Shown here piece by piece: positions 5,099-50,287 of a stretch of 57,652 nt of DNA. A program made the translations under genes and the position numbers. Below the pieces are notes generated by a model. It saw only the letters and a list, made by a program, of their open reading frames with translations, had not been told where the DNA came from and made no database searches. The DNA is from an uncultured Acidobacteriota bacterium (GTDB lineage: Bacteria > Acidobacteriota > UBA6911), in assembly GCA_964481255.1 (NCBI GenBank), contig CAYZTZ010000006.1, forward strand, positions 1 through 57,652, in the 5' to 3' direction. Within the stretch, counting starts at the first letter, position 1, and the number at the start of each line of letters is the position of its first letter.

Positions 5099-6233
5099 GA
5101 GGTTTGTAAGCCGGTATCCGCATAAATTCGCCAGGGGGAAGCGTCAGTTTCTGCGCGGCAAACGCATTCTGCCGAAGCCGATCACCGGACGGGAATCCCT
5201 TCCGGACCTGATCGACGACGCGTTTCTCGCCTATAACGCGGCCCGGCTCCAGGAGGCCTGCCGCCTGTTCACGGAGAGAATGCTTCAGCCCAACGTCACC
5301 GTCGGAATGAGCCTGGCGGGCGCTCTGACCCCCGCCGGACTGGGATCCGCCGTCATCGTCCCCCTTATCAACGCGGGCTTCGTGGACTGGATCGTCTCCA
5401 CCGGCGCCAACCTCTACCACGACATGCATCACGCCATGAACATGCCGCTGTACCGCGGCTCCCCCTTCTCCCCGGATCCGGAACTTCGAAGACTGGGCGT
5501 CGTCCGCATCTACGATATTCTGCTCGACTACAACGACGTTCTGATGGCCACGGATCACGTCCTGAGACAGGTGCTGATGCAGCCCGAGTTCCAGCGCGAG
5601 ATGGGCACCGCCGAGCTCCACTACTTTCTGGGAAAATACTGTGCGGAATTCGAAAGACAGACCGGCCGGAGGAACGTGTCCGTTCTGGCCGCCGCCTATC
5701 GCGCCGGCGTCCCCTGCTTCTGCCCATCGCCGGGGGATTCGACCATCGGCATGAATATCGCCGGTCTGGAGCTTCGCGGAAACAAGCTCCGCATCAATTC
5801 GTCGCGCGACGTGAATGAGTCCACCGGCATCGTGCTCGCCGCCAAACGCGCCGGTCATAAGACGGGGACGCTCCTCATCGGCGGCGGATCGCCCAAGAAT
5901 TTCACACTGCAGACCGAGCCGCAGATTCAGGAGGTGCTTCGCGTCAAGGAAGAGGGCCACGATTACTTCATCCAGTTCACCGACGCGCGGCCCGACACCG
6001 GCGGGCTCTCCGGAGCCACGCCCCATGAAGCCATCACCTGGGGCAAGGTGGATCCCACGAGGCTCCCCGACGCCGTCGTCTGCTACGTGGATTCGACGGT
6101 GGCGTTCCCCCTGCTGGCGCACTACGCCCTGTCGCGCCATAGGCCCCGAAAGCACAAACGACTGTACGACAAGCTCCCCGCGATCATGAAGCTGGTCACG
6201 GACGAGTATTGGAAACACAATAAGCGGCTCTAA
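5076..6233 (+). CDS. speY: Deoxyhypusine synthase-like protein, SpeY type (homospermidine synthesis)
   Basis: [31 protein letters not shown] and EAITWGKV (catalytic Lys retained); closely resembles cyanobacterial SpeY; AAGGAGG RBS before ATG 5076. Confidence 0.85.
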
Positions 6234-6305
6234 CGAACGGCGGGCGGCGAATCCCGGGCCGCGGGTTCAGCAGGCCCTTAACGCGTTGACGCAACGTGGA
6301 AACCC

Positions 6306-7442
6306 ATGGGTAAGACCTCCCTCCTGAAGGAATTGGCGAAGCAGCACGGGACGCCCCTGTTTGTCGTGGATCACGATGTGATTCGCGCCAACTACGCGGC
6401 GTTCCGGAGATACCTGCCCCGCGTGCAGGCCTATTACGCCGTCAAGGCCAATCCCGATCCCGCCATCGTCCGGACGCTTTACCGCATCGGCGCGAGTTTC
6501 GACGTGGCTTCCATCGCCGAGTTCAGGCTGGTATACGAAAACATCAGGCGTCTGCCCGCCGAAGAGCGCCAGAATTTCATCTGGGACAAGATCGTCTACG
6601 CCAATCCGATCAAGGACACGCGCACGCTGGAGGAGCTGGATGCCTATAAGCCTCTGGTGGCCTTCGACAACAGGGAAGAGATAAAAAAGATCCGCAGACA
6701 CGCGCCCCACGCGGGGCTGGTGCTGCGCATCAGGGTCCCCAACACGGGATCGATGGTGGAGCTGTCCAGCAAATTCGGCGCCTCCCCCGGCGAGGCGGCG
6801 GACCTTATGGCCGCGGCTTTTGATTCCGGCCTGGTCGTCGAAGGGCTGGGATTCCACGTGGGCAGCCAGTGCACGAATTTTGAAAATTACGTGCAGGCGC
6901 TGTCCACCTCGGCGTCCGTCGCGGAGGAGGCCGCGTCGCGCGGATTCGCCATGAAGCTGCTTGATATCGGGGGCGGGTTCCCCGCGCGTTACGACCGCCA
7001 TGTGCGGCCTTTCCGGGAGCTGGCGGCCATCCTGCGCGCGGAATTGGACCGGCTCTTTCCGAAGACCATGGAGATTCTGGCCGAGCCCGGCAGGTTTATG
7101 GTGGCCACGGCGGCGACCCTGGTCGCGGAAGTCATCGGCAAGTCCGAGCGCGACGGCAAGCGCTGCTACTACCTGAACGACGGGATCTATCACACGTTTT
7201 CAGGCATCCTGTTCGACCACTGCCAGTATCCGGTGAAGGCCTTCAAGAGAGGTCCCAAAAAAATCTCGGCCGTCTTCGGGCCCACGTGCGACGCCCTGGA
7301 CACCATTTCCCAGGCAGAGTCGCTTCCGGAGCTGAAGCTGGGCGACCTTGTCTACAGCGAAAACATCGGTGCTTACAGCCACGCCTCTTCCACCTGCTTC
7401 AACGGATTTCCTCCCGCCAAGGTCGTTCATATCAACCAGTGA
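6306..7442 (+). CDS. PLP-dependent fold-type III ornithine (Orn/Lys/Arg) decarboxylase
   Basis: YAVKANP, FDVAS, KFG, FHVGSQ, DIGGGF, EPGR, GPTCDALD. Confidence 0.92.
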   Translation: MGKTSLLKELAKQHGTPLFVVDHDVIRANYAAFRRYLPRVQAYYAVKANPDPAIVRTLYRIGASFDVASIAEFRLVYENIRRLPAEERQNFIWDKIVYANPIKDTRTLEELDAYKPLVAFDNREEIKKIRRHAPHAGLVLRIRVPNTGSMVELSSKFGASPGEAADLMAAAFDSGLVVEGLGFHVGSQCTNFENYVQALSTSASVAEEAASRGFAMKLLDIGGGFPARYDRHVRPFRELAAILRAELDRLFPKTMEILAEPGRFMVATAATLVAEVIGKSERDGKRCYYLNDGIYHTFSGILFDHCQYPVKAFKRGPKKISAVFGPTCDALDTISQAESLPELKLGDLVYSENIGAYSHASSTCFNGFPPAKVVHINQ

Positions 7443-19277: not shown

Positions 19278-19845
19278 AGGCCAACTACACGCTGTCGCGA
19301 GCCCGGCCGATCCGCCGGCTGCAGGTAACCCTTCCATCGCACGGCTGTCCAAAGGACAGGGACCCAAAGCGAAGATTGGACAATTTTCTCCCCTTGACTC
19401 TCGATTCGTCCATGTGGAGTCTCCGGAGGAATTTCGAGTCCCGATTCCCCCGGCGGCAGCCTCTTATGTACTATAATTTTAGTAAATATCAACAGAAATA
19501 TTTCCCGCGACGGCCTGAGAGCATAAAGGACAGGACGGACATGGACGAAAAGAGGCGCAGTGTCGGTTGTCAACCGCCGAGAAACGACTCCTTTTTCCCG
19601 ATGATCGCCCGGACGCCTTCTATGACCGTCTTGCGTGAGAAAAGAAACCGGAGGCTGTTTCGCAGATGTTCCGGTGCGGGAAGCCTCGACCGGGGCTGCT
19701 CGCGGACCGCCGTTCGATGCCTCGGTGCAGGCGTTGATCGTAAGCCTTGAGACCTGTGTCATAATGGATCCCGCGGTTTGCACGGAAAGCACATATAGTT
19801 CATAAGTCGCCTCTCCCATGTTGCATGCTTGCGGAGGATATGAAT

Positions 19846-20241
19846 ATGCAGACTTTCTCGATTCACACAAAAGCCCGAACCCAATTTCTGGACATCACGC
19901 GCGAGGTTCAAAGGCTGGTTGACGATTTCGGGTTAAAAAGCGGCATCGCATCGGTCTTTGTCCCTCACACCACGGCGGGGATCACCATCAATGAGAACGC
20001 CGACCCCGATGTCACGGCGGATATCGGGGAAGCCCTGGAGAGGGCCGTGCCATGGAAGGCGAACTACAGGCACTCGGAAGGAAACGCGGCGGCCCATGTC
20101 AAAGCCAGCATGGTGGGATCGTGCGTCCAGGTCCCGGTGGACGGAGGCCGCCTGCGGCTCGGAACCTGGCAGGCTGTTTATTTCTGCGAATTCGATGGTC
20201 CCCGGACGCGCCATGTGTGGGTGCAGTGCCTTGGGCTGTAA
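19846..20241 (+). CDS. yjbQ: YjbQ / UPF0047 secondary thiamine-phosphate synthase family
   Basis: HTTAGITINENADPDV, HSEGNAAAHVK, LGTWQ..YFCEFDGPR. Confidence 0.93.
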   Translation: MQTFSIHTKARTQFLDITREVQRLVDDFGLKSGIASVFVPHTTAGITINENADPDVTADIGEALERAVPWKANYRHSEGNAAAHVKASMVGSCVQVPVDGGRLRLGTWQAVYFCEFDGPRTRHVWVQCLGL

Positions 20242-20302
20242 CCGACCACGAGATCTCATAACATTGCGATGGCCCGGGATCAAGAGCGCCGGAGTTTCAA
20301 AA

Positions 20303-20333
20303 AATCCAACAGGCAAATTCAAATTGTTGGATT
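20303..20333. promoter_or_regulatory. 9-bp inverted repeat; possible activator site or terminator
   Basis: AATCCAACA-N13-TGTTGGATT in an AT-rich intergenic region. Confidence 0.4.
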
Positions 20334-20418
20334 CTGAGCTGGAGTCCTTTTCGCCCCAGTGCCGAACAATGAGATAAATCCTTTAAATCAAACACATTGT
20401 TTTGGCGTCCGGCGCGCG

Positions 20419-20600
20419 CGTCTTTTGGCATATAACATGCTTGCTTATTTTTGGAATTTCCCGTTGTCCAAGCTCTGGCCCTGGGAACAGAGCTATGGTG
20501 TTTAGGAGTAATTCGCGGACCCTTCCCGCGATGCCAGGGACCTTCTAGGCATTGAGCAGATGTTCAGGGCCAGACTTGGCTATTTTCCTGCTGGAAGACG
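20419..20600 (+). ncRNA. Candidate structured RNA (rod-like; 6S-like or sigma54-dependent sRNA)
   Basis: Nested pairings 20419-30/20589-600, 20467-88/20560-79 and TGTTTAGGA/TTCTAGGCA, with apical hairpin TCGCGG/CCGCGA; G-U pairs favour the plus strand. Confidence 0.55.
20426..20440 (+). promoter_or_regulatory. Sigma54 -24/-12 promoter candidate
   Basis: TGGCATATAACATGC has the exact GG-N10-GC spacing. Confidence 0.45.
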
Positions 20601-20659
20601 ACAGGTCTTGTTGACAGCCCCCGGAAATCGAAGCTATCCAGATGGCAGGACGTCGTGGC

Positions 20660-20690
20660 GCATCCTGAAGGGATGGATGCTATTTGATTT
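20660..20690 (+). terminator. Plus-strand intrinsic terminator candidate
   Basis: GCATCC/GGATGC stem followed by TATTTGATTT on the plus strand only. Confidence 0.4.
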
Positions 20691-21627
20691 CGGTAAAGTA
20701 CTGGATGTAGGCGTCTTCCTTTAGCTGCGCGATGTATCGCTCGAGCTCGGGAGTGAACCTTCTCTGATACAGCCGGTCCTGGATTTCCTCCCGGACTTCC
20801 TCCAGCAGGCGGACATGTGCAGGCTTGCGCGAATCGACGCGATAGACCACCCAGCCTTCCTTTATTTTCTGCGGCCTGGATACTTCGCCTTCCTTGAGGC
20901 CTTTAATGGCGGCGACGATTTCGGGGTTCAGCTTTTCGAGGACATAGGTGCCGATGCCGCCGCCTTTGTTTGCGGTAGGTCCCTTGGAGTATTGGCTCGC
21001 GAGTGCGGCAAAAGACTCTCCCTCCCGCAGCCGGCGCAGGATTTCCTCGGCCCGGCTTCCCGCATCCGGATCCGTAAGGATGATTTCGCTGAGGGTCACC
21101 TCTTCGGGCACGGTGAACTCCGCGGCGTTGTCCTTGTAAAACTTCTCGATTTCCGGCGTAAGCAGGGTAATGCGCGATCCGACGAATTCCTGGACCAGAT
21201 CCCGGGCGATGATCTGCCGCCGCAGCTGTTCGCGGTAATCCGCCAAAGACTCTCCCTGCTGCTCGAAGGCGGCGGCCAGCTCCTCGGTATCCTTGATGTT
21301 GTTTTCCTTCATGAGCTGCTGAATGTAGGCGGAGACCCTGGCTTCCACATTGGCGTTGAATCCCAGCTCCACCGCCTTCTGGTACAGCAGCTTTTCGCGG
21401 ATCAGGCCTTCGAGCGTCTGTTTCTCCGCGTTTTTGATCATTTCCTCCAGCTTGTCTCCGGAATACTTGGCCGCCAGCTCGCGCCGGGCCGCGGCCATAT
21501 GGCGGTTGAGTTCGGACAGGGTGATAATCTCATCGTTGACCTGGACGACGATTCGATCCACCGTCCCGGCCCGGGCGCCGCAGAGGCCGAACAGGATGGC
21601 CGTGATAATCCACCCCGCTTTTCTCAT
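20680..21627 (-). CDS. SurA/PrsA-type peptidyl-prolyl isomerase
   Basis: Signal peptide, VDRIVVQVNDEIIT, parvulin motifs FAALASQYS, GGGIG; follows mfd. Confidence 0.88.
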   Translation of the reverse strand: MRKAGWIITAILFGLCGARAGTVDRIVVQVNDEIITLSELNRHMAAARRELAAKYSGDKLEEMIKNAEKQTLEGLIREKLLYQKAVELGFNANVEARVSAYIQQLMKENNIKDTEELAAAFEQQGESLADYREQLRRQIIARDLVQEFVGSRITLLTPEIEKFYKDNAAEFTVPEEVTLSEIILTDPDAGSRAEEILRRLREGESFAALASQYSKGPTANKGGGIGTYVLEKLNPEIVAAIKGLKEGEVSRPQKIKEGWVVYRVDSRKPAHVRLLEEVREEIQDRLYQRRFTPELERYIAQLKEDAYIQYFTEIK

Positions 21628-37133: not shown

Positions 37134-37221
37134 GCCGAAGTGGCGGAACTGGCAGACGCACGGGACTCAAAATCCCGCGGTACTTAGTACCATGGGGGTT
37201 CGACCCCCCCCTTCGGCACCA
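37134..37221 (+). tRNA. tRNA-Leu (CAA)
   Basis: Acceptor GCCGAAG/CTTCGGC-A-CCA, D-loop GGCAGAC, anticodon arm CGGGA-CTCAAAA-TCCCG, long variable arm, GGGGG-TTCGACC-CCCCC. Confidence 0.97.
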
Positions 37222-48350: not shown

Positions 48351-49673
48351 CTAGTTCGAGACCTCGATCTTCAGCGCTTTGACTTTGCGATACAGTGTGC
48401 TCGGGTTGATGCCCAGCTGTCGGGCCGCTTTGCCGCGGTTCCCCTTGTGCCGGCGCAGGGCCTCTCTGATCATGAGCTTTTCCATGGCCTGAAGCGACAT
48501 CGGATTGCCTGTCTCCAGGCCGGTCGAGCCGGACGGCCTCAGCTCCGGCGGCAGATGATGCAGTTCGATCAGCCTGCCGCGGCACAGAACGAAGGCTTGT
48601 TCGATGATGTTTTCCAGCTCGCGAACGTTGCCCGGGTAGTCGTATTCCATCAGCCGTGCCATAACCTCTTCGGACACCCCATCGATTTCCTTGCCCTGCA
48701 GGCTGTTGAACTTCGCCACGAGATGGTCCACAAGCAGCGGGATATCCTCCCGACGCTGGCTAAGGCTGGGAAGAGTCAGGGTGATAACTCGAATGCGGTA
48801 ATAAAGGTCGTCGCGGAAGCGACCTTCGCGGACAAGCCGGCTCAAATCCTGGTTTGTGGCCGCGACGATGCGCACATCCACCTTCATCGGTTCCACGGAC
48901 CCAAGCGGCTCGATCACCCTTTCCTGGATCACGCGCAGGAGGCGTATCTGCATGGCCGGAGAGATGTCTCCGACTTCGTCGAGGAAGATGGTCCCGCCGC
49001 TGGCCAGGGCGAAACGTCCCGGTTTATCGCGCCGCGCATCGGTAAAAGCGCCTGCCTTGTGCCCGAAGAGTTCGCTCTCCAGGAGAGTGTCCGGCAGAGC
49101 CGCGCAATTGACGGCGACGAACGGTTTTTTCCTTCTGGGCGAAAGGCTGTGGATCGCCCGCGCGAACAGTTCCTTTCCCGTGCCGCTCGGCCCCTCGATC
49201 AGCACCGTGCTGGAGCTTTCGGCGATCTGCGGGAGGATCTCAAAGAGCTTCCTCATGGGCGCGCTGCGGCCGACGATGTCCTCGAACGTGTACCGGGATC
49301 TCAGCTCCTTCTGCAGCTGCTCGATCGAGCTCAGGTCCTGAAAGGTCTCGACGCCTCCGATCGTTCGGCCCTCGTCATCCTTGAGCAGGGCCGTCGAAAT
49401 GCGGATGGGGATGCGCTCGCCGTTTCGGCGGACGATGTGGGCGGTGGCGTTCAGCACCGGCCTGCCGCTGGACATGGTGCGCCGGAGCGCGCAGGCGTTT
49501 TCGCAGATGCTGGCCCGGAAAACGTCGCAGCACTGCCGCCCCAGGGCCTCGCGCCGGCTCACCTGGGTAATCCGTTCCGCGGCGCGGTTGAAGCCCGTAA
49601 CCCTCCAGTCCAGGTCGACAGTGAAAACCCCTTCATTGATTGAATCCAGAATTGTCTTTTCCCGCCCGTCCAA
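48351..49673 (-). CDS. PAS-domain sigma54-dependent activator (PAS-AAA+-Fis HTH)
   Basis: PAS with CCDVF...CENAC, GPSGTGKE, ESELFGH..GAFTDA, LDEVGD, WPGN-like YPGNVRELEN, HTH; TTG start with GGAGG RBS. Confidence 0.92.
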   Translation of the reverse strand: MDGREKTILDSINEGVFTVDLDWRVTGFNRAAERITQVSRREALGRQCCDVFRASICENACALRRTMSSGRPVLNATAHIVRRNGERIPIRISTALLKDDEGRTIGGVETFQDLSSIEQLQKELRSRYTFEDIVGRSAPMRKLFEILPQIAESSSTVLIEGPSGTGKELFARAIHSLSPRRKKPFVAVNCAALPDTLLESELFGHKAGAFTDARRDKPGRFALASGGTIFLDEVGDISPAMQIRLLRVIQERVIEPLGSVEPMKVDVRIVAATNQDLSRLVREGRFRDDLYYRIRVITLTLPSLSQRREDIPLLVDHLVAKFNSLQGKEIDGVSEEVMARLMEYDYPGNVRELENIIEQAFVLCRGRLIELHHLPPELRPSGSTGLETGNPMSLQAMEKLMIREALRRHKGNRGKAARQLGINPSTLYRKVKALKIEVSN

Positions 49674-49690
49674 TTCCCCACCTCCAGCAT

Positions 49691-49735
49691 TATTGCATTT
49701 TGCAATATAATACCAGTTACTTAATGCATTGTGCA
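49691..49735. promoter_or_regulatory. Tandem palindromic TGCA-N3-TGCA sites
   Basis: TATTGCATTTTGCAATA (49691-49707) and TGCATTGTGCA (49725-49735) in the divergent intergenic region. Confidence 0.55.
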
Positions 49736-49912
49736 AACTACCCACCGGCACCGATCGCCGCGGGTGGCTTGCGCAATTCCCGGCTTCTCCATCAGATTCG
49801 AGACTGCTATATTCGGAGGTTCTGAAATTGCATGTGGATACTTGGAATATGGATGGGCTTTTTATCGTGAATTGGGAGTATCGCCTTTCGCCATTGATTG
49901 AAGGAGATATGG

Positions 49913-50287
49913 ATGAAGGTAGGTTTCGCGGTCGCGGAAAATGAAGGACTTGAGAGCAAGGTTTACGGCCATTTCGGCTCGGCCCCCATGTTTGTCATCG
50001 TCGACACCGATCTGAAGCGGGTTTCGGCGCTGAACAACGCGAACGAGCATCATGTGCACGGCGCATGCAATCCAGTTGCGGCATTGAGCGGCAGCAATAT
50101 CGACGCCATGGTCGTGGGCGGAATCGGCCCGGGCGCCATCACGAAGCTGAACGCCATGGGGGTCAAGGTTTACAGGGCGGGGGCCGTTACTGTGGGAGAA
50201 AACGTCGCCCTCCTGGCGCAAAACAGGCTCGAGGAACTGTCGATGGAGGATTCCTGCCGGGAACATGGGGGCTCCTGCGGCCATTAG
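49913..50287 (+). CDS. NifB/NifX (dinitrogenase FeMo-cofactor) family protein
   Basis: VYGHFGSAPMFVIVD, HVHGACNP, VGGIGPGA, GHSC-like CREHGGSCGH tail; AAGGAG RBS. Confidence 0.9.
   Translation: MKVGFAVAENEGLESKVYGHFGSAPMFVIVDTDLKRVSALNNANEHHVHGACNPVAALSGSNIDAMVVGGIGPGAITKLNAMGVKVYRAGAVTVGENVALLAQNRLEELSMEDSCREHGGSCGH

Follow-up and report, generated by a model that had tools for sequence, protein, structure and literature searches.

The question raised by this locus is what occupies the space between two convergent genes of an uncultured Acidobacteriota bacterium. The stretch analyzed (the window) is 57,652 nt of contig CAYZTZ010000006.1. In it, yjbQ (UPF0047) is found at 19825-20241 on the plus strand, and a SurA-like peptidyl-prolyl isomerase (surA) is encoded from 20680 to ~21630 on the minus strand, with mfd positioned behind it. 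Between the stop of yjbQ (20241) and that of surA (20680-82) is a gap of 438 nt. An earlier note on this DNA considered the gap to be free of credible open reading frames (ORFs). This is borne out: all gap ORFs are short (34-54 aa), and no reading frame is kept among the relatives described below. The note proposed either a 182-nt 6S-like RNA beginning at 20419 (its Model A) or a small RNA (sRNA) driven by sigma-54 with a start near 20452 (its Model B). What it observed is confirmed and its interpretation is partly supported, Model B being right in essentials and Model A wrong. Positions 20296-20690 are very probably a stand-alone gene for a structured sRNA that is located on the plus strand, is transcribed with sigma-54, and likely acts in trans through the tip of its hairpin. 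The body of the RNA is 128 nt, and the full transcript would be ~135-240 nt.

The elements of the locus are given below, in window coordinates.

20296-20304, plus strand: upstream box TTCAAAAAA (family form YYCAAAAAA), ~130 nt upstream of the -24 element.

20317-20332, either strand: palindrome ATTCAAATTGTTGGAT (family form ATYCAA-N4-TTGRAT), ~95-110 nt upstream of the -24 element.

20373-20399, either strand: AT-rich spacer, TAAAT ... AAWYMA-N4/5-sTTA, resembling an integration host factor (IHF) site, with semi-conserved blocks in the upstream alignment.

20425-20442, plus strand: predicted sigma-54 promoter TTGGCATATAACATGCTT, with GG at 20427-28 as -25/-24 and GC at 20439-40 as -13/-12.

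20453-20581, plus strand: conserved sRNA body, as delimited by blastn to seven relatives (L001-L007) and by the covariance model R1.

20453-20467, plus strand: 5' tail GGAAUUUCCCGUUGU (family form GKAAUUUCCCGUKAU), conserved and unpaired in most members.

20468-20489, plus strand: 5' strand of helix P1, CCAAGCUCUGGCCCUGGGAACA, paired with 20561-20579.

20490-20509, plus strand: 5' strand of the variable middle helices, with a semi-conserved RGGAG, paired with 20541-20557.

20513-20531, plus strand: apical hairpin UCGCGG-ACCCUUC-CCGCGA with a C/U-rich 7-nt loop, present in the window and also in L001-L007, whose retrieval did not depend on the RNA sequence.

20532-20540, plus strand: 3' bulge UGCCAGGGA (9-10 nt in the family), which separates the apical hairpin from the middle helix and is unpaired in minimum-free-energy folds.

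20541-20557, plus strand: 3' strand of the middle helices, CUUCU opposite AGGAG, forming the same rod in every member.

20561-20579, plus strand: 3' strand of P1, UGUUCAGGGCCAGACUUGG, paired with 20468-20489.

20660-20690, plus strand: candidate terminator of unconserved sequence, in which UAUUUGAUUU comes after GCAUCC-loop-GGAUGC; it overlaps the surA stop codon at 20680-82.

The argument for an RNA gene is based on comparison with relatives, which were collected in two ways. A search with the SurA protein, taking one genome per species, gave seven Acidobacteriota metagenome-assembled genomes (MAGs; L001-L007) with SurA identities of 50-68%. In all seven, blastn aligns the intergenic region from window position 20421-25 (the TGGCA motif) onward at 72-79% identity. 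The alignment ends at ~20581 in three MAGs, at ~20540 in three more, and already at 20486 in L003. A short block at 20293-20337 also aligns in 7/7 MAGs; it is significant in L001 only, marginal in L003 and L004, and at chance level on its own in the others. The remainder of the intergenic region is not alignable in these MAGs. An RNA pattern was then made from three conserved blocks, TCCAAGC, TCGYGG, and CRYGRYRCCAGGGA (CCAGGGA), and retrieved 57 metagenome contigs (L012-L068). Altogether the family occurs 65 times, and its RNA bodies, 121-132 nt long, comprise 48 distinct sequences. The three blocks are invariant in L012-L068 by construction; as independent evidence, their conservation counts in the window and L001-L007 only. 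SurA proteins of the family-bearing lineages are only 48-70% identical to that of the window, and the RNA family is, by sequence comparison, conserved across Acidobacteriota lineages.

Folding of 20419-20600 on the plus strand with RNAfold reproduces every pairing of the rod described in the earlier note. The energy is -67.9 kcal/mol (z = -3.5, 0/200 shuffles as good), compared with -55.9 kcal/mol (z = -2.3) for the minus strand. As these coordinates were chosen by hand and z is only -1.5 for the wider stretch 20400-20620, fold energy alone is insufficient. The inner rod at 20468-20579 is far beyond chance once relatives are compared. All 48 distinct sequences (48/48) fold individually to one shape, composed of a ~15-nt single-stranded tail and a long imperfect hairpin. 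Across the family, 81.9% of cells form standard pairs, versus 28-47% when the 3' partners are slid by 1-3 columns. The covariation check suggested in the note found compensatory changes in 29/45 pairs (23.3 +/- 1.6 in shuffles) and 219 doubly changed cells (86 +/- 9 in shuffles), and 0/500 shuffles reach any of the covariation measures. The counts come from a covariance-model realignment that is fitted to the model, and pairing is therefore somewhat inflated; the per-sequence folds are independent of any alignment. A MAFFT-only alignment recovered just P1 and the tip hairpin, and the middle helices needed the covariance-model realignment.

The individual helices behave differently. In helix 1, where CCAAGCUC... 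pairs with ...GAGCUUGG in the family pattern, 92.8% of cells are paired and 5/13 pairs have compensatory changes. In the middle helices, lineages differ entirely in sequence yet form the same rod, with compensatory changes in 22/25 pairs; a GGAG/CUCY helix is present in the family rod. The apical hairpin has the family form UCGYGG-NCCCUUC-CCRCGA, with the loop NCCCUUC in nearly all members. Its stem shows C-G to U-A in 4 sequences and G-U in 4 + 2 + 2. The CCAGGGA of the bulge is invariant in the window and L001-L007. The 5' tail is replaced by other sequence in L020 and L055. In L012 and L025, the tail is changed from AAUUUCCC to AAGUUCCC and the bulge flank from GGGAUCUC to GGGAGCUC. These changes extend tail-bulge pairing from 4 to 7 bp and suggest a possible pseudoknot, but they represent one lineage only and are too little to count. 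Pseudoknot candidates in general (tail UCCC or loop CCC with bulge GGGA) are beyond the covariation test because the columns are invariant.

The strand of the gene is clear from the same data. Members score 84-120 bits with the covariance model on the plus strand and <=26 bits in reverse. In the window, model R1 scores 94.2 bits at 20453-20580 (+), with no further copy. Many U-G pairs of P1 are compatible with the plus strand only, as the note had recognized. No conserved reading frame is present in the RNA body: 31/48 members have stops in all three frames, and body lengths vary by non-multiples of three.

Immediately upstream of the body is the sigma-54 motif of Model B, TGGCAT-N5-ATGCT, located at 20426-20441. 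It is the sole such match in the window, but 23% of shuffles also contain one or more, and the motif alone is thus unremarkable. In the family, the -24/-12 motif is fixed in place. TGGCA[CT]-N5-nTGC is found in every member with sequence there, the sole exception being one truncated contig. The distance from the end of the motif to the conserved 5' sequence GKAAUUUCCCGUKAUCCAAGC is 11-15 nt (8 nt in L020). Positions that the search did not fix are also sigma-54-like, with Y before TGGCA in 45/46, R after TGGCAY in 46/46, and W after TGC in 45/46 followed by T in 46/46 (family consensus YTGGCAYR-N-TGCWT). On sequence grounds, -24 GG and -12 GC elements are thus present with exact spacing and are placed where they would start the RNA, as expected of a sigma-54 sRNA gene. 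Counting 12 nt from the -12 C puts the predicted start at 20452 +/- 2.

Two side observations concern this motif. Another GG-N10-GC match, TGGCTATTTTCCTGCT, is found at 20577-20592 (+). It is built from the 3' end of P1 and forms a direct repeat with the downstream part of the real promoter (20440-51 / 20575-86). A role as second sigma-54 promoter was considered and rejected, as the match is window-specific; its absence from relatives indicates that it is probably due to chance. The looser pattern TGGC-N8-TGCW occurs 9 times in the window, versus 3.4 expected.

Farther upstream, the region has the layout of an activator-dependent promoter. The YYCAAAAAA box is at the same distance in nearly all of ~46 distinct upstream regions and may be an activator half-site or a bend. 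Both the position and the dyad symmetry of the palindrome are conserved across the family. The palindrome is the only window match at <=2 mismatches, where 1.6 are expected by chance; this count is no better than chance alone, so the argument rests on conservation. It is the likely upstream activator sequence (UAS) for a bacterial enhancer-binding protein. About 95-110 nt upstream of -24 is the usual place for a UAS, and a dyad-symmetric candidate within ~80-150 bp upstream, as in activator-driven sigma-54 sRNA genes, is present by sequence. The note had proposed an inverted repeat at 20303-33 as enhancer. That repeat overlaps the conserved box and dyad, but the conserved parts are 20296-20304 and 20317-20332, and the arms it named (20303-11 / 20325-33) are lineage-specific. 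The AT-rich DNA that it placed between enhancer and promoter corresponds to the spacer with semi-conserved blocks at 20373-20399. One block matches the IHF consensus WATCAA-N4-TTR imperfectly, and might be an IHF-like site. Dyad, AT-rich spacer, and -24/-12 elements together are, as read from the sequence, the standard layout of an activator-dependent sigma-54 promoter.

The source organism has a sigma-54 system; rpoN itself is not encoded in the window. A PAS-AAA+-HTH_8 (Sigma54_activat/HTH_8) protein is encoded at 48351-49751 (-). This activator has GAFTDA where the canonical loop is GAFTGA, and a TGGCGTCGATATTGCT motif is located at 50093-50108 (-), ~350 nt upstream of its gene. In L003, a divergent gene for a GAF-AAA+-HTH_8 activator with GAFTGA (5700-7232, +) adjoins the RNA and shares the intergenic region that contains the dyad. 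This protein has a NifA-like architecture, and gltB comes after it. At the same position, L042 has a BLAST-similar ORF that is incomplete because the contig ends within it. The PAS-type activator of the window was examined as a counterpart of the GAF-type protein and rejected, as the two align only over the AAA+/HTH part (49% identity). The glutamate synthase gene gltB is found within 1-2 kb upstream of the RNA in L001, L002, L003, L020, and L052, which include the closest relatives of the window, and is absent from this position in the window. The gltB and GAF activator neighbors hint at a link to nitrogen or 2-oxoglutarate.

Downstream, the neighborhood is constant. A convergent surA-like gene follows in 47/47 loci with enough sequence, and mfd is behind it wherever the sequence reaches. 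A large subgroup instead has a blaI/Penicillinase_R repressor gene as its first convergent neighbor, with two surA paralogues beyond it. The blaI/MecI-type gene (~125-160 aa) is found in L005, L012, L013, L018, L023-L025, L030, L035, L036, L038, L048-L051, L056, and L057, and surA is duplicated in most of the blaI-bearing lineages whose sequence reaches far enough. Upstream neighbors vary and include yjbQ, gltB, the GAF activator, a dihydrouridine-synthase-like gene, a peptidase, and others. The distance from RNA to surA ranges from 20 to 820 nt, with 20-47 nt from the body to the surA stop in several lineages. No co-oriented gene is found downstream of the RNA in any locus with enough sequence. 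The RNA is therefore not a leader, and a riboswitch or cis-regulatory 5' leader is rejected. Because the downstream gene is always convergent and no ORF is conserved, the element is read as a stand-alone sRNA. The constant tail-to-tail pairing with the surA cluster may be functional or may be inherited synteny.

The 3' end is less uniform. In the window, termination near ~20587, where P1 is followed by UAUUUU, would give an RNA of ~135 nt, and termination near ~20690 would give ~238 nt. The latter corresponds to the plus-oriented terminator that the note placed at the surA stop, and a hairpin followed by a T-run is indeed seen there as a candidate. A strict scan found canonical terminators on the RNA strand in 19/57 flanks, and equally many flanks had matches on the opposite strand. 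A looser scan found strong hairpins 5-60 nt past the body in most lineages, with some canonical terminators among them. An abundant soil variant, L015, has a canonical terminator (GAACAGGGCGGAA...UUCCGCCCUGUUUCAUUUUU).

This variant also provides the clearest view of the RNA in RNA libraries. Eight larger soil metatranscriptomes (X18-X25, eight studies) contain contigs only over ~2643-2851 of L015, with a depth of 2.7-9.3 there and zero depth over 170 nt upstream and ~230 nt downstream. The covered interval runs from the promoter-proximal region to the canonical terminator, and since it ends at this terminator, an RNA of ~185 nt would be produced in L015. Four small metatranscriptomes with the L015 gene also cover its neighbors and are uninformative. 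RNA libraries from sediment, peat, paddy, and soil also contain family members, at low depth.

The family is apparently undescribed. Searching the whole window with Rfam 15 at gathering thresholds gave no match at the sRNA locus. The only matches elsewhere were an nhaA-I riboswitch (RF03057; 45074-45128, -, 49.7 bits, above the gathering score) and a tRNA (37134-37218, +). With all 4227 models at E<=10, 20150-20800 and its L015 homologue gave only chance-level eukaryotic and viral matches. No similarity to Rfam models of known sigma-54 sRNA families (GlmY, GlmZ, Qrr, CrcZ, and others) was found. In the full-text literature, no paper describing the RNA was found on Acidobacteria sigma-54 sRNAs, where only an unrelated plant-microbiome review was returned, or on RpoN-dependent sRNAs generally.

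As to how the gene might work, an enhancer-binding protein would occupy the conserved box and palindrome (20296-20332), and the AT-rich DNA in between may assist looping. The activator would open the -24/-12 promoter (20425-20442), with transcription beginning near 20452. The RNA would carry a nearly invariant hairpin tip composed of the UCGCGG/CCGCGA stem, the CCCUUC loop, and the UGCCAGGGA bulge. After transcription, it would act in trans through this tip module. The C/U-rich loop, and in most lineages also the UUUCCCG tail, could pair with purine-rich ribosome-binding regions of target mRNAs. Such pairing would resemble that of several known sRNAs, of which C-rich seeds are a feature.

Several findings weigh against a sigma-54 sRNA that acts by base pairing. 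A search for 8-mers complementary to the tail, loop, and bulge across all loci gave no recurrent position and did no better than shuffled seeds. Duplex energies against 48 start regions in the window likewise did not beat shuffled seeds, and a 57-kb window gives little power. The tip stem is almost invariant in sequence, which fits recognition by a protein at least as well as a base-pairing seed, and the conserved tail is missing from L020 and L055. Some of the apparent conservation is a product of the search pattern, which fixed TCCAAGC, TCGYGG, and CCAGGGA in L012-L068. The sole sigma-54 activator of the window is PAS-type and differs from the GAF-type neighbor in L003, and canonical terminators are present in some lineages only. 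With respect to expression, three small hot-spring metatranscriptomes from a study that includes a relative contain zero contigs for the RNA of the window's own lineage. Evidence from the relatives consists of low-depth (2-9x) assembled contigs without strand information. Three contigs of the L015 lineage begin within the promoter, 13-21 nt ahead of the predicted start, and one from a fourth library, aligned to L014, contains the whole promoter. DNA carry-over or read-through is possible for this reason.

The invariance of the tip leads to a rival in which the same sigma-54-dependent RNA is a protein-binding decoy or sponge, and its tip stem, CCCUUC loop, and GCCAGGGA bulge are a recognition platform. 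The tip stem has compensatory changes in only 4/48 members, amid helices that covary freely, which suggests sequence-specific recognition; part of this invariance is due to ascertainment. L020 and L055 keep the tip though the tail is lost, and no mRNA target was found locally. The known sigma-54 sRNAs GlmY and CrcZ work by sequestration (PMC4152352, PMC6292655). The bulge exposes an AGGGA, a GGA-type motif, but this is a single site versus many in sponges of the CsrB/RsmY type. That class is in fact rejected here, as one invariant AGGGA is exposed and RGGAG is paired in P3. No candidate partner protein is linked to the locus, and the decoy is regarded as somewhat unlikely. Action in cis, in which transcription from the sigma-54 promoter would enter the mfd-surA(-blaI) unit at its 3' end and regulate it through antisense pairing or polymerase collision, is judged improbable. 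It would account for the invariable tail-to-tail arrangement in 47/47 loci, which could also be inherited synteny. Also in its favor are the 20-47 nt that separate the RNA body from the surA stop in several lineages, and the overlap of the window's candidate terminator with the surA stop codon. Against it, surA is separated from the RNA in many lineages by 440-820 nt with a blaI-like gene, or by a strong terminator hairpin. The L015 contigs stop at the terminator or <=~40 nt past it, and none cross the ~240 nt to surA. A conserved, covarying 128-nt structure with invariant loops is also unnecessary for collision or antisense.

The two remaining explanations are given very little credence. Model A holds that 20419-20600 is a 6S-like RNA that would mimic an open promoter and bind RNA polymerase. 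In its favor, the window sequence folds to a closed rod that has an AU-rich internal loop and is roughly as long as expected. However, 6S RNA (RF00013) is not matched at the gathering score in the window, nor at E<=10 in 20150-20800 or the L015 homologue. The 5' arm of the closing stem (20419-30 / 20589-600) is the conserved sigma-54 promoter, and the 3' arm is unconserved. This stem is window-specific: pairing of the flanks has a z of -2.0 in the window, while the median among 49 relatives is -0.5, with 2/49 below -2. The supposed central bubble is the promoter spacer plus the 5' tail, and the conserved rod has only small, variable internal loops. The alternative fold that the note drew with 20557-20667 lies mostly within unconserved sequence, and nothing supporting it was seen. 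Just as doubtful is the view that the locus is no RNA gene at all, and that it is a DNA-level element (a palindromic terminator or repetitive extragenic palindrome-like element for surA) or the sigma-54 promoter of a cis-regulatory leader. A long inverted repeat at the 3' end of an operon, with repeat-built hairpins nearby in some relatives, would fit such an element. The strong strand asymmetry, seen in the many U-G pairs and in the model scores, argues against it, as do the conserved unpaired tail, loop, and bulge. Moreover, the surA distance varies over 20-820 nt, sometimes with another gene between, no co-oriented gene follows in any locus, and the element is found in RNA libraries while its flanks are absent.

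GlmY and GlmZ of the Enterobacteriaceae, among the closest known systems, are sigma-54- and GlrR-dependent sRNAs (PMC4152352, PMC7073468). GlmY sequesters RapZ, and CrcZ sequesters Hfq/Crc (PMC4152352, PMC6292655). Like GlmY/GlmZ, the Acidobacteriota RNA is encoded by a stand-alone gene with a -24/-12 promoter, and the GlmY/GlmZ activator sites are ~100-150 bp upstream. In glmY, IHF sites are present between the activator sites and the promoter. GlmY/GlmZ are structured RNAs of ~150-200 nt with a functional conserved stem-loop module, and the build here is comparable. The Acidobacteriota RNA differs in having no sequence or covariance-model similarity to them, in its phylum, in its single long rod, and in its neighborhood; neither a RapZ-like partner nor a link to glmS is apparent.

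Qrr1-4 of Vibrio (sigma-54 and LuxO) and CJnc230 of Campylobacter jejuni, which was reported to be RpoN-dependent (PMC11187230), are sigma-54-dependent and base pair with mRNAs via conserved single-stranded segments, the mode favored here. Qrr RNAs are ~100 nt, possess several short hairpins, depend on Hfq, and have canonical terminators, whereas one 128-nt rod, terminators that are not universal, and no Rfam match are found here. CrcZ/CrcY of Pseudomonas and Azotobacter are driven by sigma-54 and CbrB (PMC6292655). These activator-driven non-coding RNAs tie a nutritional signal to post-transcriptional control and illustrate the decoy alternative. CrcZ is ~400 nt with repeated A-rich Hfq/Crc-binding motifs, and the Acidobacteriota RNA has no repeated motif. 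The likeness to 6S RNA is limited to a rod fold of similar overall length in this window only; the absence of a model match, the unconserved closing stem and bubble, and the sigma-54 promoter in the 5' arm set the two apart.

Acidobacteriota are among the most abundant soil bacteria and are poorly tractable genetically. To our knowledge, few regulatory RNAs have been characterized in the phylum. An activator site, a sigma-54 promoter, and a covarying RNA whose effector tip is invariant make the locus a complete regulatory module, legible from sequence alone. Annotators gain a new RNA family with a covariance model that separates it cleanly from background, and a distant phylum is added to the small set of sigma-54-dependent sRNAs. 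The locus is also an experimental entry point to the activator, the inducing signal, and the controlled targets. A broader and rather unlikely proposal is that the RNA is a phylum-wide sigma-54 riboregulator. Its tip platform, by binding a protein or transcripts of the convergent partner, would place the mfd-surA(-blaI) envelope-protein-folding cluster under the influence of a metabolic or nitrogen signal, with the GAF-type activator beside gltB as the sensor in some lineages. If true, the riboregulator circuit would lack any described counterpart, and no earlier sRNA circuit would have been defined in Acidobacteriota.

Repeat elements are found near the gene in some relatives. In L014, 547-610 is a CAGC-heptamer inverted repeat with a folding energy of -54 kcal/mol, and L007 has one at the equivalent position. 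These hairpins, located between the sRNA and surA, may act as terminators. L015 contains a (CAATCCG)n-like repeat element at 2456-2492. In soil RNA libraries, the L015 and L014/L007 elements reach depths of up to 280 with many unrelated contigs, which identifies them as widespread repeats.

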